This document shows positions 1 to 18,500 of a DNA stretch of 64,000 nucleotides, in pieces. Source of the DNA: Amphiscolops sp. MND2022 (Eukaryota). A program made the translations under genes and the position numbers. Position 1 is the first letter of the stretch; every line of letters starts with the position of its first letter. The notes under the pieces were generated by a model. That model did no database searches. It saw only the letters and a program-made list of their open reading frames with translations, and was not told where the DNA came from. Location of the stretch: the NCBI GenBank assembly GCA_964187785.1, contig OZ076409.1:11968001-12032000 (forward strand), read 5' to 3'.

Positions 1-2
1 AG

Positions 3-3000
3 ATCTACAACCAACCTCATCTCTATTTCTACAACAATTCCAACCCAAATGATTCAAGCAAAGAACCCGATTCATATAACGATGGTCGAAATCTCAACCT
101 AGCTCTGACCAAGGCTCTGATAGACCCTTGGCAAACTAAAAGGACTACCAAGTTGGCGGTTCAGGAAGACCCCGCGCAAGACTCTTCTCAAGACGGACCT
201 GTGGTCACCCTCACTGCAACCGTCGAAGAACGCTTTGTGAACACGCTCATCTCACGAGACGGTGAACCCGACTATGTTCCGTTGACAACAAACCTCGGAC
301 TAAAATATAAAAGACGCATGCTCTATTTTCCAATGGATTTTGGCGAACTCACATTAGATGGCCTTATAGACACGGGAGCCCTATCTAGCGCGATCCCAGA
401 TGCTGATCTACGGAAAATCCGATTACTTGCCCCTCAATCAATAGTTAAAGAGGGCCCAGCTCCCAATTTCCAAATCATGGTTGCAAATGGACAACTGGAG
501 ACTCCCAAGAGCACTGTCGAACTCAAATTTGAAGTCGGGGACATCGAATTCCACGAGATATTCATAGTCATGGAAAAGCTCACAAGTCCATTAATTGGTC
601 TCTCATTCCTTCAACGGAATAATACCATCCTGGATATGCGACAGGGAGTCCTAAACTTCCCATTCTTTTCCATGCAATTGAAAACAGCGGATCACAAGTA
701 CACCAATGTCATGGAAACCCGTCAGTATACGCGAGGACATAACTATCCCGCCCAATGACAGACACATGGTTTCCATGTACTCCAATATATATGCAGACAC
801 TAATGTCACAGAAATCCTTCAACCGAGCAACGCCCTCACTGAGGACGGAGACATAGCCTTCTGCGCTGCTCTAGTCACACTGACTCAAGGTCAGGTTTCG
901 ATTCATGTGAATAATTTCACTGATCAACCCTATACCCTTAAACGGGGGTTGGACATTGCCAATTTCTCTGTCATGACGCCAGAGCAAATGAAATACGTCA
1001 AACCTATTGACGCTGTGACCACATGGCACCTTTTACAAGATAATCCAGAAAATGCTGCCTATTACGCCAGTAGTTTAATCAAATCTACAAAAACTGAGGA
1101 AGACCAAGGAAACTATTGGTTTCCTACTCCAGAGGAGCCTGGTGATCCCCAGCTCCATACTCCAATTCAGCAAAGAATCTTGAAGGAGTTAAAAAACCTT
1201 CAAGAGCTGGAAAAACTCAACCCTCAGGACGACCCTGAGTCCAGAACACAATTCATTGCTAATTTTGACTGGACAGACTCCACGTTACAACCAGACGAAA
1301 TTGCCCAAATTGAGGAGCTACTTGTCGAATTCCATGACATATTTGCAAGACATCGATTTGATATAGGCATGAACGAGGATTTCAAGGTCAAGCTCACACC
1401 CAAAGATGAATCCCCAGCCTATAGCCAAAGTCTTCCAACACCGATTAATCTCAAAGAAGACATTCTAGTCGAATTGGCACTATTGCATCGATATGGAATC
1501 ATAACAACGCTTCCATTCTCTAAATATGCAAGTCCAATCTTTGCCCAGAAAAAACCAAACGGCAAATTACGACTTTTGGTCGATCTTCGCAAAATTAATA
1601 ACCTCATCTCTGATGATTATATTAACAACAATCATCCTGTGAGTACCTTAACAGACGCCGCACATCATATGGCAGGTAAACGATTGTTCTGCAAATTAGA
1701 CTGTTCACAAGCGTATCACTGCCTACAAATGGCGGACCAGAGGTCCATTGAGATGCTTGCATTCAACTTTGCTAGCAGGACCTTCGCATACCGCCGACTG
1801 GCGCAAGGCCTCAGCAGAGCCCTTTCTGCCTTTTCAAGCTTTATGCGTGAATACTTGGACAAAGTGATCAAAGCTGACCAATGCGCAGAGTACGTCGATG
1901 ATATCGGAATTGCAGCAAACACGACTGAACAACTGATTAGAAACCTCCGAGCGACGTTTCAGTGCATCCGAAATGCAGGGCTCAAACTCACGATGCACAA
2001 ATGCCACTTTGGAGCCAAGGAAATTGACTTTCTAGGACGTACCATCACTCCTGAAGGAGCGCGGCCACAAAGACCTAGAGTCCAAAACTTCCTGGAAAAA
2101 ACCAAATTTCCCAAATCCAAAAAGGCTCTTCAGAGATACTTGGGATTTCTAAACTACTACCGCAATTACATCCCAAGGCTTTCAGAAAAACTCACACCAT
2201 TCTTCAAACTGCTCAAAAACGATGCCAAAATTTTGGTGACACCCAATCTGTTAGAACAATTCACCGAGATCAACAAAGCTCTTGACCGATGTTGTGAACT
2301 TGCACTCAAACAACCTCTGCCTAACAAGCAAATAGCGTTAATGACTGACGCTAGCTTCTCGGCAGCAGGTTACGCAGTTCTCATCGAGGACGATCCAAGT
2401 GAAAAGTATACTTCAACGCGAAAGTCTTTCGCACCTGTAGCCTATGGATCCAAGACCTTTAGTCCCGCCCAACTGAAAATGTCCATATACGCCAAAGAAT
2501 TCTTAGCAATTTTTTTCGCCTTCAAGGAATTTGGACACATCTTTTGGGGGACTCCGAAACCGGTGATAATCTTAACAGATAACAAGTCGGTCACTCGCTT
2601 TTTCCAAACCAAAATTATTCCACCAACACTGTGGAACGCGTGTGACTACGTTATGCAGTTCAATTTCACCATTGCCCATATACCAGGCAAAAACAACATC
2701 GCAGCTGACTATCTGTCTCGACTGGAGATCTGTCCTAAAGAAAAACTTATACTCCGCATACGAGAAGATATATCAATCACGCCCATTGAACTTAACGTCC
2801 AGTCATCCGGCGTTACTGAAGAAGACCAAATTTTTTACACTGATGAGGATGAAGAAACTGAAGAAGGAATCTGGCAACGTAAAAAGGAGGCTAGGTCTCA
2901 TCCGACAAACCAATTACCTGACATTTTCCGAGAGAAACTCACTGCACACAGTGGTGCTTCTTCCCAGATGACAACGCTGCAACTCCTGTCAAATAATACC

Positions 3001-4800
3001 ACCATGGCTATCGAGCAACGAAATGACGTGGTCTTACATCAATTACGGCTCAAACTGCAGAAGGAAGAATATTCTGAAACGATTCTACAACAGGATTCGC
3101 GCTACCGACATTACTGCAGTCAAATTGACCGTCTGTCCGTCCAGGATGACGTTGTCATCAGAGACTATTATGACGAAACGGGAACCGTTCAATACCACCA
3201 GGCGCTTTTACCCAAACACCTTGTGTCAGAACTACTCCACTCACTCCACGGAATGGCAAATAAACATCCAGGAATTTCCAAGATGCTTTATGAAATCCGT
3301 CAAAAATATTACTACCCTGGAATTGCAAAGATTGTCAAAAACTGGGTTCAAGGATGTGAGACCTGCATAAAAGACAAAAGAATCCAAAACCCATCAATAA
3401 CGCCTGAATTACTTAATTTGCCTGAATGGGATCTTGGCCCGGAAGACGCCCTACAAATTGACCTTTTACCTAACCTCCCACCGAGTGGGGGATTTGAAAA
3501 TGTCATTACAGCCCTGGACGTCTTCTCTAGATACCTGTTCGCCTATCCTGTAGTTGACGCTTCGGCCTCCAGTACAGCAAAAGTAATCATTGATATCATG
3601 ACGAGGCATTCATATTTACCAACAACTCTGATTACCGACAAAGGGTCAGCATTCACGTCCCGTCTAGTAAACGAGGTCGCAAAAATTCTAGGTATCCAAA
3701 TCAAATGTGCCACAACGAAGCACCCTCAGACGATAAGCAAATCAGAGAGAACTCATGCCAGTCTTAAGGGCAATCTTAAAATGGCTTCTGGTGAATACCG
3801 CCGCCAATGGCACAAATACCTACCATTGGCTGTTCTCAACTACAACACGACCTATCATTCAAGTCTGGGATGCGAGCCTTCCAGAATTTTCCATGGAAGA
3901 GTACCATATAATATTCTAGACCATCGGTTGGGCTTAAATCCCAACCCAAAGATCCTGCCAACAACCGATTTTGCTGAAGAATTACAAAGGCGCACTCAGA
4001 TTTTGATTGATAAGACCAAGAAAAACATCATGCAGTCGTACTTAAAGTACAAGGAATATTATGATCGTGAAGCAAAAGCAGCCCCACTACAGCAGGGAGA
4101 TTATTGTTTTTTACTTCAACCGCTAGCGGACAACCAGGGATCCAAACTTCCGTTTCGCGAATTCCGGTGGATTGGACCGTAAGTCATTGAAAAATATTTA
4201 CCGAACGAAAACTACATTGTCCGTAAACTTAGTTCCAATAAAACGCAAATTTTACACAGGATACGTCTACGAAAATACACTCCGAATAAAGAGTTACGTG
4301 ACGTCCGACCGGAAGGAAATTTGCAAGCCGATGATGAAATCGTCATGCCACAAGATGATCATTACATTATTTCTTGGGAAACAGAATTTGACGACTTTCC
4401 CCCAGCTCCGAACGTGAACAACCCTCCTGATGATTCTACGCCTAATTCAGATCGACCGGACGCTATAATCACAGATTTGGACCTTCGGTCCACGCGGTGG
4501 CAAGCAGATACTGACGCCGCCAATACTGAACCGCTAAGACGCGACGTGAATGACGCGGACCTTAAGTCCACTCGACGGCAGCAAAAAACTGATTCAGAAA
4601 TGGACGAAACTACTTCTAAAAGTCCCTCAGAAGCAAGAAATTTTGATTTTTTGAATTCTAGAGGGGAAGATACAATCGTGCCCGATTTTCTAGACTCTGA
4701 AAACGATGAAATGGTTGTAGGAAATGAAAGTCCCAGGGGAGGAAAATATAATCTGCGCCCCAACCCAACTCCAAACTTCACTGATGAATACAGATACTAG
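3..4800 (+). pseudogene. pol: Gypsy pol polyprotein (aspartic protease, dUTPase-like segment, RT, RNase H, integrase) with one frameshift (~718) and one premature stop (4180-4182)
   Basis: LIDTGA protease; LLVDLRKIN, LDCSQAYH, YVDD in RT; TDAS and TDNKS in RNase H; H-H-C-C zinc finger; QIDL/TDKG/ERTH integrase triad; GP(Y>stop) motif, after which the same frame continues to TAG at 4800. Confidence 0.95.
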
Positions 4801-5004
4801 TCAGAATAAGTAAATTAAAAGGGCCCGTTATTTACCTTCATAATCTCAATTATTTTCTAGGGCCTGATCTCACTATAAATGTTCACTGCTAAAAAAAGAC
4901 TAATGTCAACAAATATACATATACAACTACTAGAAAATAAATAAATGGATAAATGAAACGGTACTATAACACAAACAACTATAAGTGTACTAATGGTACA
5001 ATTA

Positions 5005-8000
5005 TCAATCCTTAGCAAAATGACGAATGCTTGAACTGGAGGGCAACTCGCTGTCTGATTGACGCCTCACAGGCGATCCTTTGGCACTGGCTGGCGGAAG
5101 ACTCTTGGAACTGCTGTTGCTTTTCAGATCTTTAAACCTCAACTTTCGACTTTCAGTCTTCCTCTTCATTGAGCCCGGACGTAAAGCAGCAAGAATTTCA
5201 GAGCGATCGAAGCGATTGAGGCTGTCCCAGGGGCTATACATGTCAGAGAAGGCAGTATTCCCGAACGTAGGTTCGAAGGAAAGGAACTTAGCTATTGAAG
5301 AAGCTGAAGTGAAGGCATCTATGCTCCGCCCCACATTAATAAAGAAGGATTGAACGGGCAGAATGGTGTCAATAAGTTTACTTTTGGGGTCATCTGTCCG
5401 CACTGGACCAAACTTCACGGTAGGCATACTAACATAACTCTCATCCAAACATAAACAGCTCAGCTTAAAGATCCGAGCAAGATGGGGTCTTGACTCTAAG
5501 GCAACATGATTGGAAATGTGAGTCACTGCATCCTGGATTATGACCCTTGGTTGGCCCAGATCAGGCATCTCTTTGCGGATCTCGTCAAGGAATGATAAAT
5601 ATTCCTCTGTATAGATGGACTCCGCGTCGGCTTGAAAGTAACCGCGAAGATGAAAGCTGCGGAAAAGATGCTTGAAACAATTCAGCGCCTGGCTAAGGGG
5701 GGAACGATACATAATGTCCAGATCAAAGGAGCCCAATCCTTTCACAATGGTGGAGGTCAGTTGTAAGTTGTTTTGGGCAGCATGGAAAAGGTAGGCAACG
5801 TAGCTCCTCCCAAGTCGCCCAAACTCTTCTTTGTTCTCTTTCACGAGTTTCGGAAGATTAGCCCGATTGCCCTTCTTGTCGCTTAATTCCTTTTCTGCCT
5901 TGACTTTGCAAGCCACTTTCAGTCGTTGGTCGAGCTTCGATCGGGCGATGAAATCGGGAATGGCTAAGGCTTTGGCATCCGACATAGCAATACCCAAAAT
6001 CCCTGACAGATCTGTTTCCTGTGGCAGACTTTTCGGCTTGATACAGCGCCTTCCTAGCTTGAAGAGGTACTGGCATAACTGCCTGTAGATATGGAATCCA
6101 TGATCCCGTCGTTCAGTCAGATGTGGCACAAAGCTCGTGGTATCTAAACATTTGCGTTCACTATGATTATCGAAAGCTCAAGAAATGATACGTACTACGG
6201 GTGGACTATACTTACAATCCCTGACCAAGCGATAGAAGAGTTCAAGCCGGCACAGAAACAACTCATCATGGATCATGGCTCGCTCTAGGTTCTGAGGCTA
6301 GAACAACAAAAGGAAAATTGAAACAACCGAAATTAGACTGAAGGTCAACGGGACGGCAGCGACTTACTTGTTTTCTCACTCCCATCATTTCATGCGGAGG
6401 TGCATGTTCATTCAGGAATTTGGTCACATCTGTCCAGTTAGCAAGCAGCTCCTGACACAGTGTTGGGAGAGTGGCGAGTTCAATTTGGCAAGTACGAACA
6501 GCCTGAACACAACAAGTTTATTAGTACCTTTGAAAGAGCCGTGGACTACAAGCCTAAAATGAGAGAGTCTAACCTTTGCCAACACTGGCGTCATCAAGGT
6601 CCAATCACAGTCGAGACTTCCCCCCAAGAAGATGATTAGATACTTGAGAACGGAGTGGAAGTCGATGCGTCCAAAGACGCTATAGCTTTCTTTATGCATT
6701 AGCCGCGCGATTGAAAAGTCCTCAAATCTGAGAGGGTGTTGGAGTCCATGCTTACTGTAAGGAGAACTATCTACCTTCTGGATCGTTTCCAGGCTGCAAC
6801 CGGAGCAACTGACAATGTTGGTGCCGCGTGAGAAAACTGCCAAAACGTCACTTATGAGGCTTAATTCGGCTGCCGACTGTCCCAGGACCCGGCCGGTTCG
6901 CTTCAGGAAAACTCGGCAGAGCTCGTCCTTTCTCCAGAAACGGATGAACACTAACAGGAAGACTCCTTGCTTGATAAATTCCAGCGAATACTCGCCCGCT
7001 GCAACTACATGGTCTCCAATGTCATGTATAGTTTGTAGGAACAGGTGGTGGAAGAGAGCCTAGAATGAAAACATCATATTTAATGCAGGTCAAAAGTAAC
7101 GATTACTGGGCTGGGGAAGACCTTAAGTCGATTTAACGGCAGGAAAATACTTACTGATAGCCGTTCTTTACTCCAGTCAAAGTCAGTGAAGAGCGACTGA
7201 TGGTTTACAACGACCCCAACATCCCGCCAGAGGTTCCTCAGGGTGCTGATATCGCCGTAGCTTCGCAAGTAGTTACCCAGAACTGACATCTGGACTCGAA
7301 CACGGTTGTCGGATGAAGAAGCCATGTAGTCAACTCCTTGAGCGTATTCGTCGTAGAACGGAAGCTTCTCTCCGATGTCCACGAGTTCTACCCCAATGAA
7401 CTTGGGTAATTCTAATTGAAGCTCGTAGGGGGTGAGAAGTCGTCCGTCCTTCCCCCTGACATGGTGTTTTATCCTTCCACTCACGGGGTCTTCTATGGCA
7501 AGATGCTCGTATCGCCACCTCTGATCTTTACGAAGATGACGTTCGGTGGAGTGGTGACGAAGGATCTCTCGAGCGCCGCGTCCATAAATTGATATATTGC
7601 CTTTACAGATTTGGCAATAAAATTTATACGGATTCCAGCGAGGATCAACTGGTCCGCTCACAAACGTCTTCGTCCACTCCATTCCTTTAAAGTATGCCTC
7701 TTTCATGATTTTACAGGCACGAGGCACCCGATGTCTGCTCTCTCCTTTGGGGCGAGTAGGCTTCTTGCTTTGTCTTCGGCGTGTTCCAGACTTAGTCATT
7801 TCCGATACTGCCTCCGCTTTGAGCGCGGACAAGGTTTGTCCTCCGGGGCTATCAGTCTGGGTTGAAGCTCCAGGTGACACAAGGTCAATTTGACGGCTTC
7901 CAGTCGGACCGGTTGGGGGAGGAGTAAAATGTTGACTCTCCAGGTCGGAATGTTCGTAAACATATCCAATACTGGCGAAATCATCGTCACTTCTGATTCC

Positions 8001-9265
8001 CCCACTGGTATCGCTTGTATGACCTGATGACAAACCAGATTGTGACCCGGCATAACTGGTATGAGAAATTGCTTTCTTCGACCTCGGAATGACGGCCGTC
8101 GGTGACCGCTGGGCTCCAAGGCTCAATCTGCTTGCTTGTTGTACCAAGCTTTCCATAGCTTTCAGCGACGATTTAACTGCTTCATCTGCTACAACTTTTA
8201 ACAAGTTACTCACTTGGCCCTCATTCAATGCAAGGGTAGGAAGCCCAGGAGACAATCTGATGGGGGTGGCCTCGTCAAAATACTCCTTTATCAAAGCGCG
8301 ACTACTAGCTGACAGTTGAGGGACTCGATGTGCTGATTCAGGGAAATCTACTGAGGTGTTGCTGGCTACATCACTCACTCTAAATACGTTAGCTTGGGCA
8401 GGTGCAAACAGGACATCAGCCACTGTGGACCCGACTAATCCTTCAGACTCTAACCCGGCGTCACTGGTTACCTTATCGGATTCTCTGTTCGCTGTTGGAT
8501 CTGTAAATCTGGGGGCTTCAAATTCCCCAGCGAACTCAGATCCAGCTTCAGAACTTGAGAGACCTTCCGTCCCGGCGGCGGCATCAGACAAATCAGTCCT
8601 TGGAGCACTCAACTTCACGCTCAGTCTTTGAACTTTTGCTTCGGAAGGCCCATATCGGGACTTGAGACTGCTTTTCAATAGTACTTTGGGAGAGTCCAGG
8701 AATGCAACCTCTGGCGCTTCGTCCAACTCCAATTCATCTTGGGTAGGGGAATACTGACCGGGCATCAGCTCCATCATGCTACTCTCGCTAAACTTCTTGT
8801 CGCTCCAGTCGTTCTGACTCGATGTACCAGTTTCTTGCGAACAGCCCAATTGTTCCCACTTTCGAGCGATGTAAGCCCCACAACTCTCATCAGTGCTACT
8901 ACTCTCAACGTTCCAGTTGCTGTAATAGCAGGAGGAGTGGCTTCTGTGTTGGAAATAGCCATGGGGGGATCTTGAGGCGTCACAGTGATGTTCCCCAAAC
9001 TTGTAGTTGCTCCCTCACTCACCAGACTGGGATCGTCTTCCACTACTCTCTCAGGATCATCTGACTTGTCGTCATAATCATTCTGGCCGTGAGTCATGGA
9101 CTTTACGGTGGGGAAATTATTGACAGTGGAAGAGGCAGTTACAAAGGAATCAGTCGTATCCATTTTTTCTTCTTCAGCGACCAATTGGAGAGGTTGGCCA
9201 TTAGATTCATCACCTAAACGGAATGAGATGAATAAACGCGGTTCACTTCCTGAATATGAATCCAT
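5005..9265 (-). CDS. Antisense 5-exon gene (~1317 aa), BED-like zinc finger, hAT-transposase-derived; exons 9265-7155 (one frameshift ~8900-9000), 7059-6574, 6502-6368, 6297-6216, 6143-5005
   Basis: Four GT-AG introns (7154-7060, 6573-6503, 6367-6298, 6215-6144; 70-95 nt; three GTAAGT donors; CTAAT branch-like sites in introns 2 and 3) join the minus-strand ORFs exactly in frame (phases 0,0,0,1). Contains FYCQICKGNISI...ILRHHSTERH zinc finger. Confidence 0.85.
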
Positions 9266-11314
9266 CTAGCCGCATTTAAACAAAATCTCCCGGAAGTTCA
9301 ATTGACACAATGTTCACGCTGATAGCAAACATTTCACGATGGAGGAAGTAACTTAGTTGGGATTATGAGCTCTGATCACGCCAAATTCTAACACTTTAAA
9401 AGAACCAACCTGATGCTGTATCCATAGTCGTTCAGCAAAATTGATGTGATCCAATTGTAGTTCGTGCAAGGAGAGTAGATTCAGTCGATACAACGACTAG
9501 TTTTCAAATTGCCTCGGATTGTTGAGGAACCAAAATTGTAGTGGTCTTTTCAGTGGACGCTGAGGAAGGGGATGTAAACTGGAGCTTCTGCTTCTCGAAG
9601 AGATTGTTAAACGGGCAATTTAGAATGAAATAGTATGGAGAAGTTTTGTTTTGTGATTAAATGTGACAGGAAGTTAACCAACTGTACATGGAAATGATGG
9701 TGAACTAAATGCCACCCCGAGTCAAAGAACTGCACTGGTTACATAGTGGACAATTTAGCCCGAAGGAACAGCATTTGAAAAGCAGATAATCAATGCGAAT
9801 GAGATTAAACTCTGTGGAAAATACCAATGGACCTAACGTCAAACGGACGGCAGTGCTATAATAGTCTCAGGATTTGGGGACAACCCAGCAAACAGAGCTC
9901 AAAATGTGGATTAGTGTTCAGAAGGAGCGTATTGAAAGAATAGATTGAATCTATACAATTAGAAAAGTACCAAATAAAGAACTCAAATATACTCAGCAAC
10001 TTCTAAAAGAAGCATATTACAAATGATGAATGCAGCTGATATCAAAAGGCAAGTTAAATTAGTGTTCAAATGAAGTAATAGCCGTTACTAGCTGCCAATC
10101 ATAACTATTATTTACTCAAGCTGACTGTACATCCATTTGACGGCAACTTATCACTTACTTATTAACTATTGCGTAATAAGACAATAAGTCCGCTCCACTA
10201 CAAAGGTATACATGTACTCATTTACCTGTCAAATTAGACCGGAATTACAGCCATCAACATTTACACTTATTGTGACGTCACACGCGTTGAATGACCACCA
10301 GTCAGCCGGACGGCATTCAATTACTTACATGTACGCGACTACTTTGAGGAAGTTAGAGCACACCTATTTCGTGACGTCACACGCGCTGTATGACCACCGG
10401 TCAATTGGACGGCATTAATTTAACTATTTGTACTCACCCCTTTTGACTGAGACTTCACGTCCCGCGGACTGCATCAAAGGATGAACCTGAAATTCCCTCA
10501 TTTATTGAACGTTCAGTCCAGTTGACAGCACGGATTCCTTGACTCACACACTGAAATACTATGAAGATTTAAACCAAATTACTGGTTTTGTCGCATAAAA
10601 TTCACTTTATACGTGAAATTTCATGTCCGTAAAGAAGTCGTGGCTACATACAAAATGATTAAGGCCCTAATCCTACCAATTTGTTGGAAAATGAGCCTTT
10701 TGGTGTTTTCTTGATCAATTGAGCCTGCCAGTGAGATTTCCAAGGAACATCATTTTATTTCCACTTAGTTGGATCATTAGTCCAGCTTCACTCTTGCTCA
10801 TTATGTTTCTTTTTCCTTCAATTATTATCAGTTACCATTTTAATAGATTGATTCTTTTCTATTTACCTGATTTCATTCTTTCATTTTCGTTCATTCATCA
10901 ACACCTTTGATTGGTTGACACGTCGACTGCCGTCAAGCGGACCGACGGTCTTTGAACAAGTAGTGTTGACAAATAATATTAACGGTAAACCCTTCACTGA
11001 CTTGTTAATACTGCTTAGCATGCCTTTGAAGAGAAAAGCAAGCTACCCTCAAGTGGTACTTGACGAGTGGTATTCTCAACTCATTCATAGATTGTTGATT
11101 ACCAACTTATTTTACTCGACCCTGAAAAGGAAAAATAAGGGAAAGTTTTTGGGGGGTTTCCCTCCACCAGTTCCCGCGAAAATTAGGATTTGACCAAAGG
11201 TCAGTCAGACGGCACAATTTCATTCATCCAACTATTTCCTTGAGGATCAGTTCCAACGTTTCAAACTCAGCCAAGATTGCAAAGAAAATATTACTCTCCC
11301 GGTTCAGTAACGCG

Positions 11315-12138
11315 ATGTCATTGCAATTCTCCTTAGACGAAGTGGCTAGACCTTTAGTGAGCCTTTCGTATCAATCCTCTGACGAGGATATGGGGATTGA
11401 TTCTGTGTCAGTACCAGACCATCTTGAAAGTCAGGATTCCGATGACGACATTCAAGTCCTGGCTTGCTACCACGAGAATGCTCCCTTCCCTCCCCAGTTA
11501 GCAGCAGGGAGAGCAATGACCACCGAATTGACCAATTCTCTGAACGATCTCAATCTACCAAAAGAGGACTTCACAGACACAATTAGCACGTTCACCGAAC
11601 CTTCGCAGGAGTTGCTTGACTGGTGTGTTGGTGCCCCCCCAACGACTTATGTAACCGTTATGGCCGAGATCACCCAATCACTCAATGCAGTCAGCTCAAC
11701 CCAATTCGCGATTCGCCTTGGTCACAACCACTGGAAGATCAGAGACCCATCAATGATTACAGCAGCCAACTGCCACAAACCTACGAATCGGACTCATGGT
11801 ATAGGAGTGCACACATCACTGGATTGGGCATCAGTATTAGTGGCTCCTGTGGGCAGCCCAACGAGATATTCCACAGTGGGTGCGTGGTCTGCGGGAAATC
11901 ATTCGAGGACATTCGGACAGAAATCACTCTTGGATATCTGGAGCAGACACATGTGCCCGGTGAGACCTACGAACAAAGGACTGCACGTAGTAATGCTTTC
12001 CAAGCTGGTATGAACGCTGGGTCGTTCATACTAGTCCCCCGGGGAGTGTCGCAGGCTGCCGCCTGTGACGGCGTGGCTTACCAAATAACCCCGGAAAATG
12101 ATCTCAACAACCCAGGACCAGGTGTCCTGCCAATATAA
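11315..12138 (+). CDS. Accessory ORF inside the LTR (~274 aa if one C is restored in the C7 run at 11634-11640); unknown function
   Basis: Two overlapping ORFs (11240-12013, 11623-12138) joinable at a homopolymer; acidic N-half; C-half with HSGCVVCGKS; GC-richer than flanks. Confidence 0.55.
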
Positions 12139-12917
12139 AATAAACACTTAGAACTCATGTGATATACTACTATATATTGTTGCATTACTCAATACACAAT
12201 AATCATAATCATTGGGTGCTTAAATTACATGTGATTCACAATTATTTCAATATGTTGACCTAAGGTCAGTTTGACGGCAATCACTCACTTTAGTATACTA
12301 AAGTGTCAAAACGTTAGCGAAACACCCTACTCATTTGCAAATTATTGTATCAGTGCTAATACAAAACCTGTTGCAGTTAAAATACCAATGTGAAGTTGAC
12401 GTAGTTAATATCAACTAGTAAAGAGTAAAGACAATGCATTCACCTGCCACTATGTTGCTGCCGGGTCGACGCGCAGTACGCTGTACCCTTGTCCAAATAA
12501 ATATAGCAAAATGTATGTTTTTGCCGCCACGTGGACGCAAGGTCCACTCAGCCGATAAAAGTTAGATGTTGTTCCCCAGTGCATGAAATGTTGCTTACTA
12601 GTATTAGCATACTTTAACATAACTGCCGCTTCTATTTATAGAATTTTGGATTAGTGACGTAATATCTCTAGTGACGCCATGTTCTATTTATAATATCTGT
12701 GATGTCATAGTTAGATTGATCGCTATTTTTATAATGATGTCATTCCTATTTTTACTTAATGACACTCAGAATATTGAGTGTCACGGATGTAAAATTATAA
12801 ATAGGAGGATATTGTTACTAGAAATTCATTCAATACCTGCTTTGTGATACAATTGACACTGTTGATACAATTCTGATCATTCGAAATTTACTGTTGAAAC
12901 GTTATTTTCTTATTGAC

Positions 12918-13560
12918 ATGCCTTCTACCAGGAAGCAGAAAGCTAAAGAAAAGCGACCAAGACAATCTGACGTAATGTCAGACGTAGAAAACCTTGATAT
13001 AATGCTTGGAAGTTATTCCAGAGATGCACAAGTAGAGCAAGGTAACATTAGTGACGTTGAAGGGGACTTTGAGTCTGATAGACGCCAACAGAGCACCGAC
13101 TTAGTCGAAGGAAACTTCAGGTCACTCTTGAATACCAATGTAAGTGAAAATAGTGAAATTACGGCTGAAACTATGAGAGCAATTAACTCAGAAATTTCAT
13201 CGCAAATGTCCAGAAAATTAGATGAAATGAAATCAGATTTGAATTTGCAAATAATGGATGCTATAAACTCAGCAATTCAGGAAAAGGTACTTCCCTCCTG
13301 TGAAAATACGTTAAATTCGGTTAAAACCACTCAAAACACAAAATGGGACCTTCGGTCAGATGGACGGCATTCCGGTTTAGTAGGACAGTCTGCCTCCAAT
13401 AGTGACCCTCGGTCAAGTGGACGGCACCAAAGCGCACAAGCACCGTTAGACTTGAAATCAAGTGGAAATCGGCCAAAATCTAACCTTAAAGAGAGTAACC
13501 TTTACAATCGCTCCAGAGATAGTTCCGTAGATTCTATTGAGAGCGATGTCGGTTACGACA
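12918..13560 (+). CDS. Gag-like N-terminal ORF starting inside the LTR, cut at the LTR end
   Basis: MPSTRKQKAKEKR basic start, coiled-coil-like ISSQMSRKLDEMKSDL, open up to the terminal CA; TATA about 120 bp upstream. Confidence 0.6.
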
Positions 13561-13915
13561 CTAATCTTTTCATATCGTCGATGTCCTTCTTCATTTCTAG
13601 ATTGTTAGACACACACTTGAGACGATCATCAACATTTTCCAGACACCAACCACAGAACCACTTGCAGGCATCGATTGCTCCGATGACATTTAATTGCTTC
13701 TTGGACAAACCCGAACACTCTTCATGAAACCATATAGAGCACATGTCACACATTATTGCTAATTGACCATTTAGCACCTCCACATCACACTTCTTGCTAA
13801 TGCTTTGCGATGCCTCGTCATTTGTTGTACAATCTGCATTGTGATCCCCCCGATCTTCGGCCGATCTTTGAAATCCACTAGGGCTGCTTCTTATCGGCAC
13901 ACCACCATATCTCAT
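13561..13915 (-). pseudogene. PHD-finger ORF fragment (LINE ORF1-like or host), truncated by the LTR element
   Basis: C...IMCDMCSIWFHEECSGL...WFCGWC followed by a coiled-coil-like segment; cut at 13560. Confidence 0.7.
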
Positions 13916-14911
13916 CTATTTAATACGTTTATCACAACAATAACCACAACGAGGAATCCACAGTTGAATTCATGATTGTGCAATCTTGCAACATCAGTCA
14001 TAATCAGTTTGTGATTGTTCTCACTGACCTTGGTCAAAATTTCTTTTTCGGAATATTCCAAGATTGCCCAATGATGGTAAACTATAAAGTTTGATGTATA
14101 TAGAAAACAAAACTTTCCGAAAATCCATAATTTCGAGTACGCTTGTTGCCGCATCCCAGTAGTCAACACGTCAGACACGGTCCGAAACTGCGCCACGCTC
14201 GAGGCAGAAAAAAAACAAGTCTTCAAATCAGTTCCAAGAAAAATTTCAAAAAACAAAGGGTGGCTTTATGGTCTCATCTTTTTTTTGCAGGCGGCGTAAA
14301 AGTATCAATTATTGAAATGATGGACCTTTTGGTTGTTTTTAGTAAAGGCCCGGAAGTACGACATAGAATCTTTTCACAAAAATGGACCATCCTTAGTTGA
14401 GACTGCTGGAACTTTTTACATGCTGCTGGCCTGCATGCAGGAAAAACAAAAACCTTGAAAATTCAGTAAGTTTCTTGTTGTAAATCTTTCATACATTACG
14501 ATATATATGCCGCAAAAGTGGAATTTATCATCAAGTGTAATTAATAGTAATCATTAGTAATTAGACAGCATTTTCCACTACTGCAAAAAAATTAAAACAA
14601 TTCCACCGACTTTACATGCGATCGCATCGTATTTATACAGAATAGAGTAGATTAGAATAGAAAAGTTAGTTTATTTATTCCGAAATTTTTACATTAAAAA
14701 ACAATGGTTATAGCTACCTTTCAGAAAAGGACAAAAAAAACAAAAAAGCACAGAGGATTTAAATTGGGCAAGTTGAGCCAATTGTGGGATTTTCTTAGTA
14801 GATTTGTTGAACTTCGCTGTCTCAAAACAAGTCTGTCATAGGTAGAAGACCTCATGTTTGCTACTAGTATTGTAGTCGTGACTGGCCAGACTTGTAACAA
14901 GGTATAGCCTG

Positions 14912-15084
14912 CGCATACGGGACAATTTGCCGAAAGACAATTTGCCGAAAATTGACTACGGGACATTTTGCCGAATGATTTTCGGCAAATTGTCCTTCAC
15001 ATTCGGCAAATTAAGTTTCGGCAAATTGGGTTTCAGCAAATTGGGTTTCGGCAAATTGTGGTTCGGCAAATTGTCCCGTATCCG
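14912..15084. mobile_element. MITE with TIR TACGGGACAATTTGCCGAA and TTCGGCAAATT subterminal repeats; related partial copy at 15355-15490
   Basis: Inverted repeats near 14916 and at 15062-15080. Confidence 0.7.
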
Positions 15085-15549
15085 GTTTTTGCTCCTGCGA
15101 AGCGTTTAAAATAGATGAGGTACTTCTCCCCACCTAATATGGGTCATTAACGGTGTATGCACGCTCGCCCTCACCGTCGCAAAGACCAGCTCCCACTACG
15201 ATCGCTTCGCGATCTCCGTTTCCGCTAGGTCTTTGCTCCTGTTCGACCTCGCTTAGCAAGAAGGGGACATAAGCGGCCCAAGGGGCCGCGGGGCACTAGA
15301 AGAAATAGGGGCATATCCGACGGCCAAAAGCATTGTTATTTGAAAACGCTAGGTATTCGGCAGAATGTCCCTACAAAATTCGGTAAATTCAAAGGGAAAA
15401 TTTGCCGAAAAAAATTTCGGCAAAATGTCCTTCACGTTCGGCAAATTGGGTTTCGACAAATTGTCTTCCGGCAAATTGTCCTTAACCCTACCCTGGGTGA
15501 CTTGAATCGTATTTGTTCGAAAACCTCTTTCACCATTTCGACGATAAAC

Positions 15550-18500
15550 ATTCTGTAGATTTTGAAAATTGTTTCTCGTTCAAACGTCTTGTATAGTGTC
15601 CCATTTTCGTCGCTAGGAACATGCCCAGAAACGTCTTCGCTGTGCTTTTTCTATAGAAGGTGGTTTTGTTGGCAAAGGCGCAGTTGATGAGACCATACAA
15701 AAATACTGATTGAGCATTAGAATAATGAAACGACAAAGGACATTTTGTAGGAAACAGTGACTGATCTTTTATACTAGTCCATGGAATTTTTTCCACAGAA
15801 AGCGTCCAATTAAAACACCTGAGTACAGACAATGAGATTGCGAACAAATTTCGGCACCGAGCGTCTCAAATAGAGAAGGTTCACTAGCCTTAAAGCTTAT
15901 TCGCGTTTAACGGTTTAATGGTCAGTTTTTAGACTCTGAACCAGTTGGCTACGTTGCAAACTTTGTCTTCTGCTTCAGCGCGGCTAAAGTTATATAGTCA
16001 GGTATTGTCATCAAACAGCGCAATTCGACTTTCTTGGATACAGTCTGGTAAATCATTGATGTACAGTAAAAAGGCCGCGAAAAGATCCTTGCGGCACTCC
16101 GGTTGTTAGTGTTGTTATCGAAAAGTTTTTACACTGATCTAAACCATACTGACTGACTTCGATTATGTAAATAGTTTTGGATAATATGGAAAATGGAATC
16201 AATGAATACATACAGTTCCAGTTTTGACGATAGTACTTTATGATTTATAGTGCTATTGCGTTTTTTTCTGATCGATGAAGCTAACATAACCTCCATTTCT
16301 TTTATCAATTTCTTGTCTTTTACATTCATTTGCTTCACTGATTGCATTCGAGCGTTTGTAAGTTTCTGTGTCTAAAACTCAGAGTTTTGTGTTTGGGTAC
16401 AAACGTTGTCAATCTTTTTAATAGCAATTTCCCAAAAACTTTGTTCATTGATGTCAAAAAGCTGAGATGACGAGGAATTTCAGGTTGATTTTTATCACCA
16501 TTTTTGAAGAATGGCCTTTCTCCAGCAGTTTTTTTTGTTTCGGGAAATATTCGATCCTCTAAAACTTTGTTGAACATTTTTTTTTCAAAAAATGTCATTG
16601 TTAGGCGAACAGCAGTTAAGGATTTCCTTGCTGACCTTGTCATGACCAATGTTTGTCTTTTGGTTTCAGATTTTTCAGAAACTTCTTTTTTATGCTCATT
16701 TGTGTATGGTAGGACCGACACTGCCTATTGAATTCGCTCAGGTCGTCCAGGCTGCAGTCTGCTGAAGTTTTGTTCCTATCTTCCTCGTCTTTCAAATACT
16801 GGTAATGTTTTTTCATCTACGAGTTTGTTCCTAGTTTCTCATAAACATAATCTCGCCTTGCACATTTCTCAGATAGCGATATTTTTCTCTTTTTTTCAGT
16901 TGGTTGACATATCATTCTTGAAAAAAATATCTCTTCTTTGATTCATTTGTTTCTTCAATGGCACGAATACTTCAATCAAGCAAAAAAAGAAGCTTTAAGG
17001 GCTTTGGTCTTTTAAGATTTCCCAAGCATCTCTTTTTGTTGATTTTGTCGTCCGCACTTTTTATAGCGGAACAAAAACCCAACTCCATTTCCACGGCATA
17101 ATGATCGGAAAAAGTTAGTTGAAGTGTGTTGGAAATACCCGGATAGCTGATGATTACGTGATCTACACATGTCGCTTATGTAGCAGTGACTCTGATTGGT
17201 AGGAAGTTTTTTCATCACTAAGAGAAACTACTTTCATTAACTTCTGCACTTCAATTGGTCGCAAGATTCACAAGCAGGTCTTTTTTGAAATCCTCAAAGA
17301 TAATGACATCATATTTTTGCTCATGTAGAAACATGAGCAGTTTTACAACCTCATCAAGAAAAATTGACTTTGACACTCTCAGGTGTATAGAAGCATAGAA
17401 CATTGATGACATTTTCAGTGAACAAGATCGGCATTCAATGGGTTGATAACCAGCAATATTGAAAGTAGATAAGTCATCACTTTCTGTGAGCCACGGTTCA
17501 GTGAGAGCAATCAGATGAGGCACGATGTTTGTAATCGTTCAATTCAACGAGAATTTCTTCAAAATGTTTCCGAAGTAATCCAATGCTCAAAACTAGACAA
17601 AAACAATGTCTAGATGGATTGTTCACAATAATTGATTGGTTCTCATCATAGTTCTTCCACTAAATGTAGAGTTGGCAGTTTCAGAATGTTGATTGCAGTC
17701 AAACTATATGGCAGTTTAAATGCGCTGTTTCAGAAATGATACGTTGAGAATTTTCATGTACGATAGAAGTTTGATCGCAAATAGTTTTATTGAAGATCCA
17801 TTGGTGCTGTTGGAATAATTGCTTTGTTGTCAGCTTGTACGTGAAGCGGGTTCAAGGTTGTACTTTTCAAAACTGGCATATATTCTTCTGAAGGAGACTT
17901 TCGTCTGAGTTTGAGTGCACAATCTGCTACCGCATAAATGACCTTTAACCCCTGTCGTTTGAACATGGTGTTCGTGTATCAGTTTTTTGACAGCCTTCTC
18001 TTTGATATTGTCTATAGCTTTTTTGAGTTCAGAACTACACTTCGAAAATTTCCTGCCGCATTCGCCAGGAACACTCTCATTTTATAATTTTGGATTGTTG
18101 TTTTCGAACCCTCTTGTTCTGCATACATTTTCAGCTAGTTTTGCAGTTTTGGTAGTCTTTCCTTGAAGAATACTGGGAAGCCACTTTTTGTGTTTTTTCT
18201 AAGCCAGCAAAGACTTACGTCCTAAACTTTTTTGTTTGTCTCCAAATCACACAAACATCACGATAGTCGCTGGGCACTCAGATAACTTTTGGAGCACTCA
18301 GATAATGACAAGTTTTGAAATTGGTTTCAACCCTCTTCCATTTCAAATAACAATTGAAAAAACACATACCTTTGTTGCATGTGGTAGAGTACCGTCTACA
18401 TCGAGCACGTTTTAAATGATCAGGAAATCTTTTGAAAAATACTTCTGTTTCCAGAATTCTGGTCTCCTCTTCGGTAACTCAATTTTATAATTGTGAAATG

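Follow-up and report, generated by a model that had tools for sequence, protein, structure and literature searches.

Background

Rev, acting on the Rev response element (RRE), and papillomavirus E2, acting on ACC-N6-GGT sites, are regulators that work through cis sites of their own genomes. In Hermes, one BED domain reads 4 bp, pairs of domains bind palindromic repeats cooperatively with rigid phasing, and three phased repeats are bound by three protomers, according to an extract of the published account (PMC10368747). The gypsy insulator, as outlined in part of PMC2374998, carries 12 Su(Hw) sites with the word YRYTGCATAYYY in 340 bp of its 5′ untranslated region, which are served by a host 12-finger protein. 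For the retroelement Cer1, an excerpt of PMC10309623 describes an accessory protein with a Cys loop, CERV, that is required for genomic RNA export. Here, we analysed a stretch of 64,000 nucleotides from Amphiscolops sp. MND2022 (contig OZ076409.1 of assembly GCA_964187785.1, positions 11,968,001 to 12,032,000 of the forward strand), hereafter the window, which begins inside a Ty3/gypsy-type long terminal repeat (LTR) retrotransposon of 16.5 kb. A 23-base motif, first described as GACC-N3-GGTC-M-N4-GACGGCA, is dispersed over this element. We find that the motif is a nucleic-acid-level signal. Judged from its sequence, it is probably a binding site, and a reader encoded by the element itself is plausible.

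Occurrence of the Motif in the Window and in the Genome

Mismatches were counted against GACCNNNGGTCMNNNNGACGGCA, and the chance expectation was taken from dinucleotide shuffles of the window. The 64-kb window contains 6 exact copies (0.00 expected) and 16 copies with at most 2 mismatches (0.01 expected). A copy is present at each of the 13 positions quoted in the preliminary description, with no mismatch at 10392, 10928 (minus strand), 11192, 12257, 13347 and 13404, one at 4558, 6336, 9830 and 10293, two at 4480 and 7876, and three at 10123. Beyond these 13, the same element holds further copies at 196, 3115 (minus strand), 7119, 8561, 10451, 12522 (minus strand) and 13065. The word GACGGCA alone occurs 14 times in the window, 11 of them between 4574 and 13426. 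When the refined core described below was searched with at most 1 mismatch, all 20 sites in the window fell within 1-13560 and none in the other 50.4 kb, so the motif is indeed not found elsewhere in the window, as had been stated.

In the same genome (1.07 Gb), the exact motif occurs 1525 times compared with once for the reversed control, and the refined core 7594 times compared with 35 for the control, which makes it a sharp annotation diagnostic for the family. Together with the empty 50.4 kb of flanking DNA, these counts speak against the possibility, raised earlier, that the motif is equally frequent in unrelated DNA. Of the first 100 exact matches listed for contig C1, the places that were examined comprise 10 full copies of the element and 13 solitary or small-cluster loci. 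The latter all match LTR or internal DNA of the family with 65-93% identity, and one further cluster at 58.46-58.48 Mb has a family-like layout as judged by its site positions. The motif is confined to the element family, in line with the suggestion of genome-wide confinement. An exact-motif scan of metagenome contigs returned at least 119 single matches and no relatives, which we take as chance matches; a further near match accompanied only 5 of 80 loci, all of them on high-GC contigs. At C1:9808906-9817616 and C1:33764057-33770303, LTR-type motif pairs recur every 1.1-5 kb, with C at position 20 in the first run, suggesting tandem LTR arrays or nested fragments of related elements.

To compare family members, nine further full copies from contig C1 were analysed together with the window copy, giving ten in total, and the slot analysis refers to this contig. 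The LTR pairs of the nine copies are 98.3-100% identical, so these insertions are recent. The copies represent several subfamilies, with 48-94% pairwise identity over the last 5.8 kb. In each of the nine others, 23-27 sites with at most 2 mismatches were counted (both LTRs included), and their relative places and orientations agree between copies. With the LTR counted once, there are 16-21 sites per copy and 185 over the ten copies, representing 115 distinct 23-mers. Recurrent slots were numbered S1-S21, and occupancy was expressed as the number of the ten copies with a site of at most 2 mismatches in the alignment of the last 5.8 kb (Table 1). At S8, which is degenerate in the window copy, the orthologue is the exact GACCTTTGGTCACATTGACGGCA in 8 of the 9 other copies and a 1-mismatch version in the copy E9. 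The latter also keeps the 9830-type and 10022-type slots, which are misaligned upstream of its own 4.5-kb insertion.

Conservation of the Core

In four non-coding slots with a clean alignment, the mean pairwise column identity is 0.91 for the core, compared with 0.55 for the N positions, 0.54 for the 15-nt flanks and 0.60 for the non-coding background. The question of whether the motif positions are better conserved than their flanks is thereby answered in the affirmative. The best-kept positions of these slots are A2, C3, G9, T10, C11, G17, C19, G21 and C22 (1.00 each), A23 (0.95) and G1 (0.91), while A18 (0.82), M12 (0.77), G8 (0.75), C4 (0.71) and G20 (0.57) are weaker. A conservation-mask scan that was blind to the sequence was run over 6134 windows, and its first four ranks were 12257 (+), 12522 (-), 12456 (-) and 11192 (+), with slot 9830 as the 14th distinct window listed. 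S13 lies between exon blocks of the antisense gene described below, in a stretch closed by stops and beside a canonical 5′ splice site. All ten copies retain the core of this slot, and the 22 nt upstream are unalignable across copies. The core is under purifying selection.

The slots occupy very different surroundings. S13 and S14 are intronic, S1-S3 and S18-S20 are non-coding, and S9, S15 and S17 lie on the other strand of a gene. Conserved slots thus occur outside coding sequence, within an intron, in either orientation and in two codon phases, and the constraint acts on the nucleic acid and not on a protein, as the preliminary description had argued.

Refined Motif, Symmetry and the Proposed Hairpin

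The refined core reads GAC-N5-GTC-N5-GAC-N-GCA, with the full form (T)(G/T)-GAC-(C)-N3-(G)-GTC-(A/C)-N4-GAC-(G or T)-GCA, in which about 16 of the 23 bp are informative. Three GAC-type half-sites, alternating in orientation with an invariant 8-bp step, are followed by GCA. The spacing is as fixed as first described. The N positions were also said to vary freely, and this part did not hold: positions 4, 8, 12 and 20 show partial conservation, C never precedes G1, and G follows C11 (at position 12) in only 1% of sites. Base preferences are mirrored about the first dyad, with r=0.93 for positions 4/8 and r=0.87 for positions -1/13.

The motif had also been proposed to form a triloop-hairpin RNA signal, and this candidate was rejected. 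Pair 4-8 is pairable in 0.52 of the 115 distinct sites and in 0.52 after shuffling, and 17 of 72 variant pairs can pair; pairs 1-11, 2-10 and 3-9 never vary and are therefore uninformative on covariation. Weak covariation signals at 5-7 and -2/14 do not build one helix. The stem is barely stable: a forced 4-bp hairpin averages -1.05 kcal/mol and appears in the minimum free energy (MFE) fold of 44 of the 115 sites, with a median P(G1:C11) of 0.15. In window positions 1-16000, no Rfam family reached its gathering score. Mirrored preferences without pairing covariation are as expected of a symmetric protein on duplex DNA. Furthermore, GAC and GTC are one and the same half-site on duplex DNA, which favours a duplex reading. 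The half-site phasing and the palindromic pair of BED-type arrays are both found here (GAC/GTC/GAC, 8-bp step).

A Lineage-Specific Letter at Position 20

Genome-wide, position 20 is G in 3919 sites, T in 2153 and, by subtraction, A or C in 1522; among the 115 distinct sites of the ten copies, it is G in 87%. The letters of individual elements come from the listed match ranges on contig C1. With the LTR counted once, the copy E2 has 15 G, 2 A and 1 T in 18 sites, compared with 0 G, 9 T and 3 A in the 12 sites of the copy at 4.76 Mb, whose slots match S1, S2, S3, S5, S6, S7, S9, the pol tail and S20 (sites of the 5′ LTR and the internal region; G versus not-G, Fisher p=1e-5). Among the G and T matches listed, the copy at 11.29 Mb has 1 G and 6 T, those at 27.70 Mb and 35.47 Mb both have 0 G and 4 T, and that at 27.89 Mb has 0 G and 3 T. 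The change from G to T is a transversion, and CpG decay therefore does not explain the difference in letter. It is also non-synonymous where the slot is coding, replacing Arg by Leu at S5 in gag and Arg by Ser at S9 in pol.

G-type and T-type lineages coexist in one nucleus, each over many independent slots, as co-evolution with a lineage-specific reader would predict. As both lineages are found within one host genome, such a reader is more likely to be element-encoded than host-encoded.

The U3 slots of three copies were compared letter by letter with those of the T-type element (C1:7441454-7441772, 24912751-24913046 and 79806123-79806419 versus C1:4764610-4764931). In E5 and E13, slots S1-S3 are identical to those of the 4.76-Mb element except for one base of S1, and the other slots are G-type. 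The U3 slots of E1 likewise match that element, except for a variant S2. The LTRs of E1, E5 and E13 may be recombinant.

The Antisense Gene and Candidate Readers

The element carries a predicted gene on its antisense strand, with three or more large exons and splice donors of the canonical GT type. All ten copies contain it, and of 69 places scored, 47 have no stop inside the match, which bears out the earlier view that the gene is native to the element. Its protein contains a conserved CxxC-x16-HH-x4-H unit, for which a beta-beta-alpha fold is predicted at low confidence (AlphaFold, residues 409-620, predicted local distance difference test 59). The protein had been called a BED-finger protein, and this name is tentative. 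Pfam zf-BED has no match in the window antisense protein or in 30 relatives, the sole Pfam lead for the finger is zf-C2H2_ZN292 below its cut-off, and the language-model lead to zf-BED and zf-C2H2_12 scores 0.87, under the guide value of 0.9. The last exon gave scattered helical-repeat language-model leads only, at or below 0.84. A comparison of the protein profile with PDB sequences found none, and in a profile search of 1.84 billion representatives the best 150 were all close family members, with no named family among them. The exon-1 protein family comprises 1246 representative clusters (E≤0.001), with 8854 first-look candidates in the genome.

A distant clade of elements encodes an antisense protein that is 47% identical over the finger-bearing C-terminal part of exon 1, and 66 of its copies were scored in the genome. 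Within the ranges of three genome match listings, no refined-core match lies near 2, 4 and 5 of these copies. In the 2.5 kb upstream of one antisense gene of this clade, the presumed counterpart of a region in which the family has four sites, there is no site with up to 3 mismatches and no other obvious repeated word. The motif is not shared by every element bearing the antisense gene.

Readings of the Motif

We tentatively place first the reading that the 23-mer is a putative duplex-DNA recognition site with an element-encoded reader. In such a mechanism, the three half-sites GAC(C), (G)GTC and GAC(G or T), together with GCA, would be bound as duplex DNA by an oligomer, each subunit of which would read 3-4 bp. 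The family would keep about 20 fixed slots because a sequence-specific protein must load at many places. Candidate readers are the antisense zinc-finger protein, the product of a third sense open reading frame (ORF3) and Gag. Binding may serve transcriptional control of two divergent promoters, protection from silencing, or marking of the element's own copies. Protein binding, the preference for DNA over RNA, the encoding of the reader by the element and the effect of binding are what we infer here from the patterns described above. The preliminary description had suggested a site for the element's own BED-finger protein; a binding site is probable, an element-encoded reader gains indirect support from the lineage-specific position 20, and the BED protein as that reader is doubtful. 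A more specific version supposes an addressing code, in which an oligomeric BED-like protein of the antisense gene would read the roughly 20 boxes and co-evolve with them, and G-type and T-type lineages would recognise only their own copies; on sequence grounds, we consider it rather unlikely. Several observations weigh against duplex recognition by an element-encoded protein. The sites show a sense-strand excess (140 sense versus 45 opposite-strand sites over the ten copies), as an RNA reading predicts, and the 8-bp step places the half-sites on different faces of B-DNA. The copy at 6.53 Mb is mixed at position 20 (5 T, 3 C, 1 G), and E1, E5 and E13 join A/T-type U3 slots to G-type slots elsewhere, so position 20 may be only loosely read. 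Moreover, no recognised DNA-binding family scores above threshold in the antisense protein, and the finger helix of this protein is almost identical in the distant clade without the motif near the examined copies, which speaks against the finger as the reader.

The strand bias also fits an RNA-level signal on the full-length sense transcript, with the opposite-facing sites read on an antisense transcript. Such a signal would load Gag/nucleocapsid for packaging, or an accessory protein for export or stabilisation of unspliced genomic RNA. This alternative is possible, if somewhat unlikely. About 16 of 22 slots are sense (one-sided p=0.026), or 12 of 17 when tandem pairs are merged (p=0.07), and the transcribed body carries sites along its whole length, gag, the pol tail and U3 among them. 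Gag carries two CCHC knuckles, a lineage-specific letter would yield lineage-specific packaging, and precedents exist in the dispersed viral packaging signals and in Cer1 CERV, as far as extracts of PMC6281560, PMC5431903 and PMC10309623 describe them. However, the sole possible local structure is the 3-4-bp stem whose stability and covariation were found wanting above, with no Rfam match, and GAC and GUC, if read as single-stranded RNA, would each need a pocket of their own. About 6 of the 22 slots are conserved in opposite orientation; the non-coding S2, S3 and S20 among them are kept as well as the sense slots, with S3 and S20 in 10 of 10 copies, and S9 lies outside the antisense gene. A host factor, whether a transcription factor or an architectural or zinc-finger protein exploited by the element, or a host protein targeting it, appears quite unlikely. 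The length of the motif, with its many informative positions, is as for multi-finger proteins, site density is highest in U3 and in the intergenic DNA preceding the antisense gene, and several non-coding copies contain AAGGTCA or TCAAGGTCA, which we take to resemble nuclear-receptor extended half-sites. This likeness and possible ones to AP-1/CRE, THAP and MARE sites fit subsets of sites and not the shared core, and were set aside. The 12 Su(Hw) sites in 340 bp of gypsy, described in part of PMC2374998, provide a precedent, but a gypsy-type Su(Hw) insulator was rejected since the slots here are dispersed over 16 kb and the word differs from that of gypsy. In addition, the examined places among the first 100 listed exact C1 matches all belong to the element family, there are no sites in 50 kb of flanking host DNA, and one host protein leaves G-type and T-type lineages side by side unexplained. 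The target of a repressor would be lost, not kept, in recent insertions with LTR pairs up to 100% identical. The last alternative is that the copies have no function and are left over from internal duplication, from a D-L-R-S-x-x-R-Q/H peptide motif, or from a process of mutation or gene conversion. Some neighbouring pairs are indeed tandem duplicates (10293/10392 and the pol-tail trio), and seven sense coding slots share phase 0 (D-x-x-S-x-x-R-Q/H). A coding motif was nevertheless rejected, as S8 has phase 1 and further slots fall within introns, in non-coding DNA or on the opposite strand. A longer dispersed repeat was rejected as well, because the flanks of different slots within one copy are unrelated (0.28-0.29 identity, with one tandem pair per copy exceeding 0.5). 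With the core kept while N positions and flanks diverge between subfamilies, this explanation is highly improbable and largely refuted.

Anatomy of the Host Element

The retrotransposon was delimited by a 1514-bp direct repeat, 98.9% identical, at window positions -2935..-1422 and 12047..13560, found by comparing the window with the 10 kb upstream. The CTAAT duplication lies on both sides of the element, and the 5′ LTR is followed directly by TGGTGACAGGAGCCAAAC, a primer-binding-site-like word (TGG...). On the plus strand, Pfam places protease, RVT_1, RT_RNaseH, Integrase_H2C2 and rve in this order. The element thus shows TG...CA LTRs, a target-site duplication, a primer-binding site beside the 5′ LTR and the protease, reverse transcriptase, RNase H, integrase order of the Ty3/gypsy type. 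The LTR pair and the flanking CTAAT give the length of 16.5 kb, and the LTR does not begin at 9830 as first described. The LTR label stands for 12257, 13347 and 13404, while the sites from 9830 to 11192 are internal, between the antisense gene and the sense ORF3. The LTR sites of the window copy are 12257, 12522 (minus strand), 13065, 13347 and 13404 only.

Gag and pol frames are broken in the window copy, and antisense exon 1 holds a frameshift. The layout was read from two copies with identical LTRs and uninterrupted frames, E2 and E7. Their gag encodes 604 aa and begins about 830 bp inside the 1500-bp 5′ LTR, continuing past the LTR end, so about the first 220 Gag residues are LTR-encoded. 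The gag frame crosses the LTR end and the primer-binding site (window 12918-13560; locus L031 7840-8649, 8633-9715). Pol is about 1730 aa long, and the antisense gene has three large exon blocks of about 700, 170-190 and 400-420 aa. ORF3 encodes 287 aa and terminates about 90 bp into the 3′ LTR; in the window copy it sits between the antisense gene and the 3′ LTR (11306-12138) and is split by a frameshift. In seven other tabulated copies its length is 284-337 aa, and it matches no Pfam family. A weak dUTPase match (E 0.005, under the Pfam cut-off) lies at window 682-980, at the start of the long pol frame and before the reverse transcriptase. At 13553-13915 on the minus strand, an open reading frame with a sub-threshold PHD-finger match adjoins the 3′ end of the element, and it may be host or other DNA that received the element. 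E9 is about 4.5 kb longer than the other copies, with its insertion between S19 and S20.

About 430 bp at window 10030-10460 are private to the window copy and have no similarity to the 9 other copies. Within 10263-10433 lies a 74-bp internal duplication, 80% identical and found in the window copy only, each unit of which combines a CRE-like GTGACGTCAC word with one motif copy. This points to local duplication as a source of new motif copies; slot S19 has meanwhile been lost here. S16 may be a chance match or a decaying site.

Table 1. Motif slots and other features of the element in window coordinates; occupancy is given as copies out of ten unless stated otherwise.
Feature	Position	Strand	Occupancy	Setting and remarks
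S1	12257..12279	+	10/10	LTR U3
S2	~12456	-	7/10	LTR U3; degenerate in window copy
S3	12522..12544	-	10/10	LTR U3
S4	13065..13087	+	9/10	start of LTR-encoded gag; degenerate in window copy
S5	13347..13369	+	10/10	LTR-encoded gag, peptide DLRSDGRH
S6	13404..13426	+	10/10	LTR-encoded gag
S8	196..218	+		protease/pol coding, codon phase 1; degenerate, 1 mismatch to refined core
S9	3115..3137	-	orthologue in 9/9 others	integrase coding sequence; T at position 20 in window copy
S10/11	4480..4502	+		pol C-terminal tail; 2 mismatches; three-site cluster in other copies
S11/12	4558..4580	+		pol C-terminal tail
S13	6336..6358	+		short intron of antisense gene; 5′ splice site (+ strand letters ACTTAC) 8 nt away
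S14	7119..7141	+	3/10 (≤2 mismatches)	first intron of antisense gene; degenerate
S15	7876..7898	+	7/10	antisense exon 1 (read on opposite strand)
S16	8561..8583	+	3/10	antisense exon 1; weak
Unnumbered site	8804	-	3/10	
S18	9830..9852	+	9/10 in alignment	non-coding, upstream of antisense gene
S19	~10022		8/10	lost in window copy
Private sites	10293, 10392	+	1/10 each	window copy only
S20	10928..10950	-	10/10 (≤1 mismatch)	non-coding
S21	11192..11214	+	10/10	start of sense ORF3 or just upstream
Antisense multi-exon gene	5005..9265	-		predicted; exon 1 with one CxxC...HHxxxxH finger; frameshift in window copy
Private stretch	10030..10460	+		motif copies 10123 (degenerate), 10293, 10392, 10451; two CRE-like TGACGTCA words
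3′ LTR (TG...CA)	12047..13560	+		direct repeat; 5-bp target-site duplication CTAAT at 13561-13565

Comparison with Known Systems

The subterminal repeats of hAT/Hermes resemble the arrangement proposed here in that many short words are recognised by the individual zinc fingers of an oligomeric, element-encoded protein, as the partial account in PMC10368747 describes them. The Hermes words are 4 bp long and are concentrated in the terminal ~200 bp of a DNA transposon (same extract of PMC10368747). In the present LTR retroelement, the repeated unit is a 23-bp composite that recurs along all 16 kb, coding sequence and introns included, and Pfam recognises no BED domain. The Su(Hw) array of gypsy is alike as a Ty3/gypsy-type element with a dozen or more copies of one protein-binding motif, the binding being putative here; in contrast to the host protein of gypsy, the lineage-specific letter argues against a host reader in this family. 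The packaging signals of RNA viruses likewise consist of many degenerate copies of a short motif along the genome, overlapping coding sequence, and are stem-loops on one strand according to excerpts of PMC6281560 and PMC5431903. Here, the stem is unsupported, and instead of all sites lying on a packaged strand, 45 of 185 sites and about 6 of 22 slots are opposite and conserved. Intron-bearing antisense accessory genes that likewise sit between pol and the 3′ LTR are known from Ty3/gypsy elements of fungi and plants (compare PMC7264820), but the protein family of the antisense gene here differs from theirs and is large and unnamed.

Searches of the open-access literature on antisense or additional open reading frames in LTR retrotransposons turned up no such dispersed motif, which is not proof of its absence. 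No published LTR retroelement is known to us to keep a single long motif at about 20 coding, intronic and non-coding slots. The LTR, the leader and the polypurine tract are where cis signals of LTR retroelements are usually looked for, and here about 20 slots across the whole element are under selection, with the motif forcing amino-acid choices where it falls within coding sequence. If the reader is element-encoded, this family would provide a natural system for how a mobile element recognises its own copies, show how sister lineages that share a genome come to differ in their recognition codes, and open a route to the role of a widespread, unnamed antisense protein family.

Rev/RRE, CERV and E2 are the systems in which, as would be the case here, an accessory protein acts on its own nucleic acid via specific sites, with a specificity that co-evolves with the lineage. 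They differ in that the RRE is one structured region and E2 acts on simple palindromes, located in the control region of a viral DNA genome; no cis site is known to us for CERV. Should the addressing code prove true, it would be a retroelement analogue of the specificity between a transposase and its subterminal repeats or between E2 and its sites.

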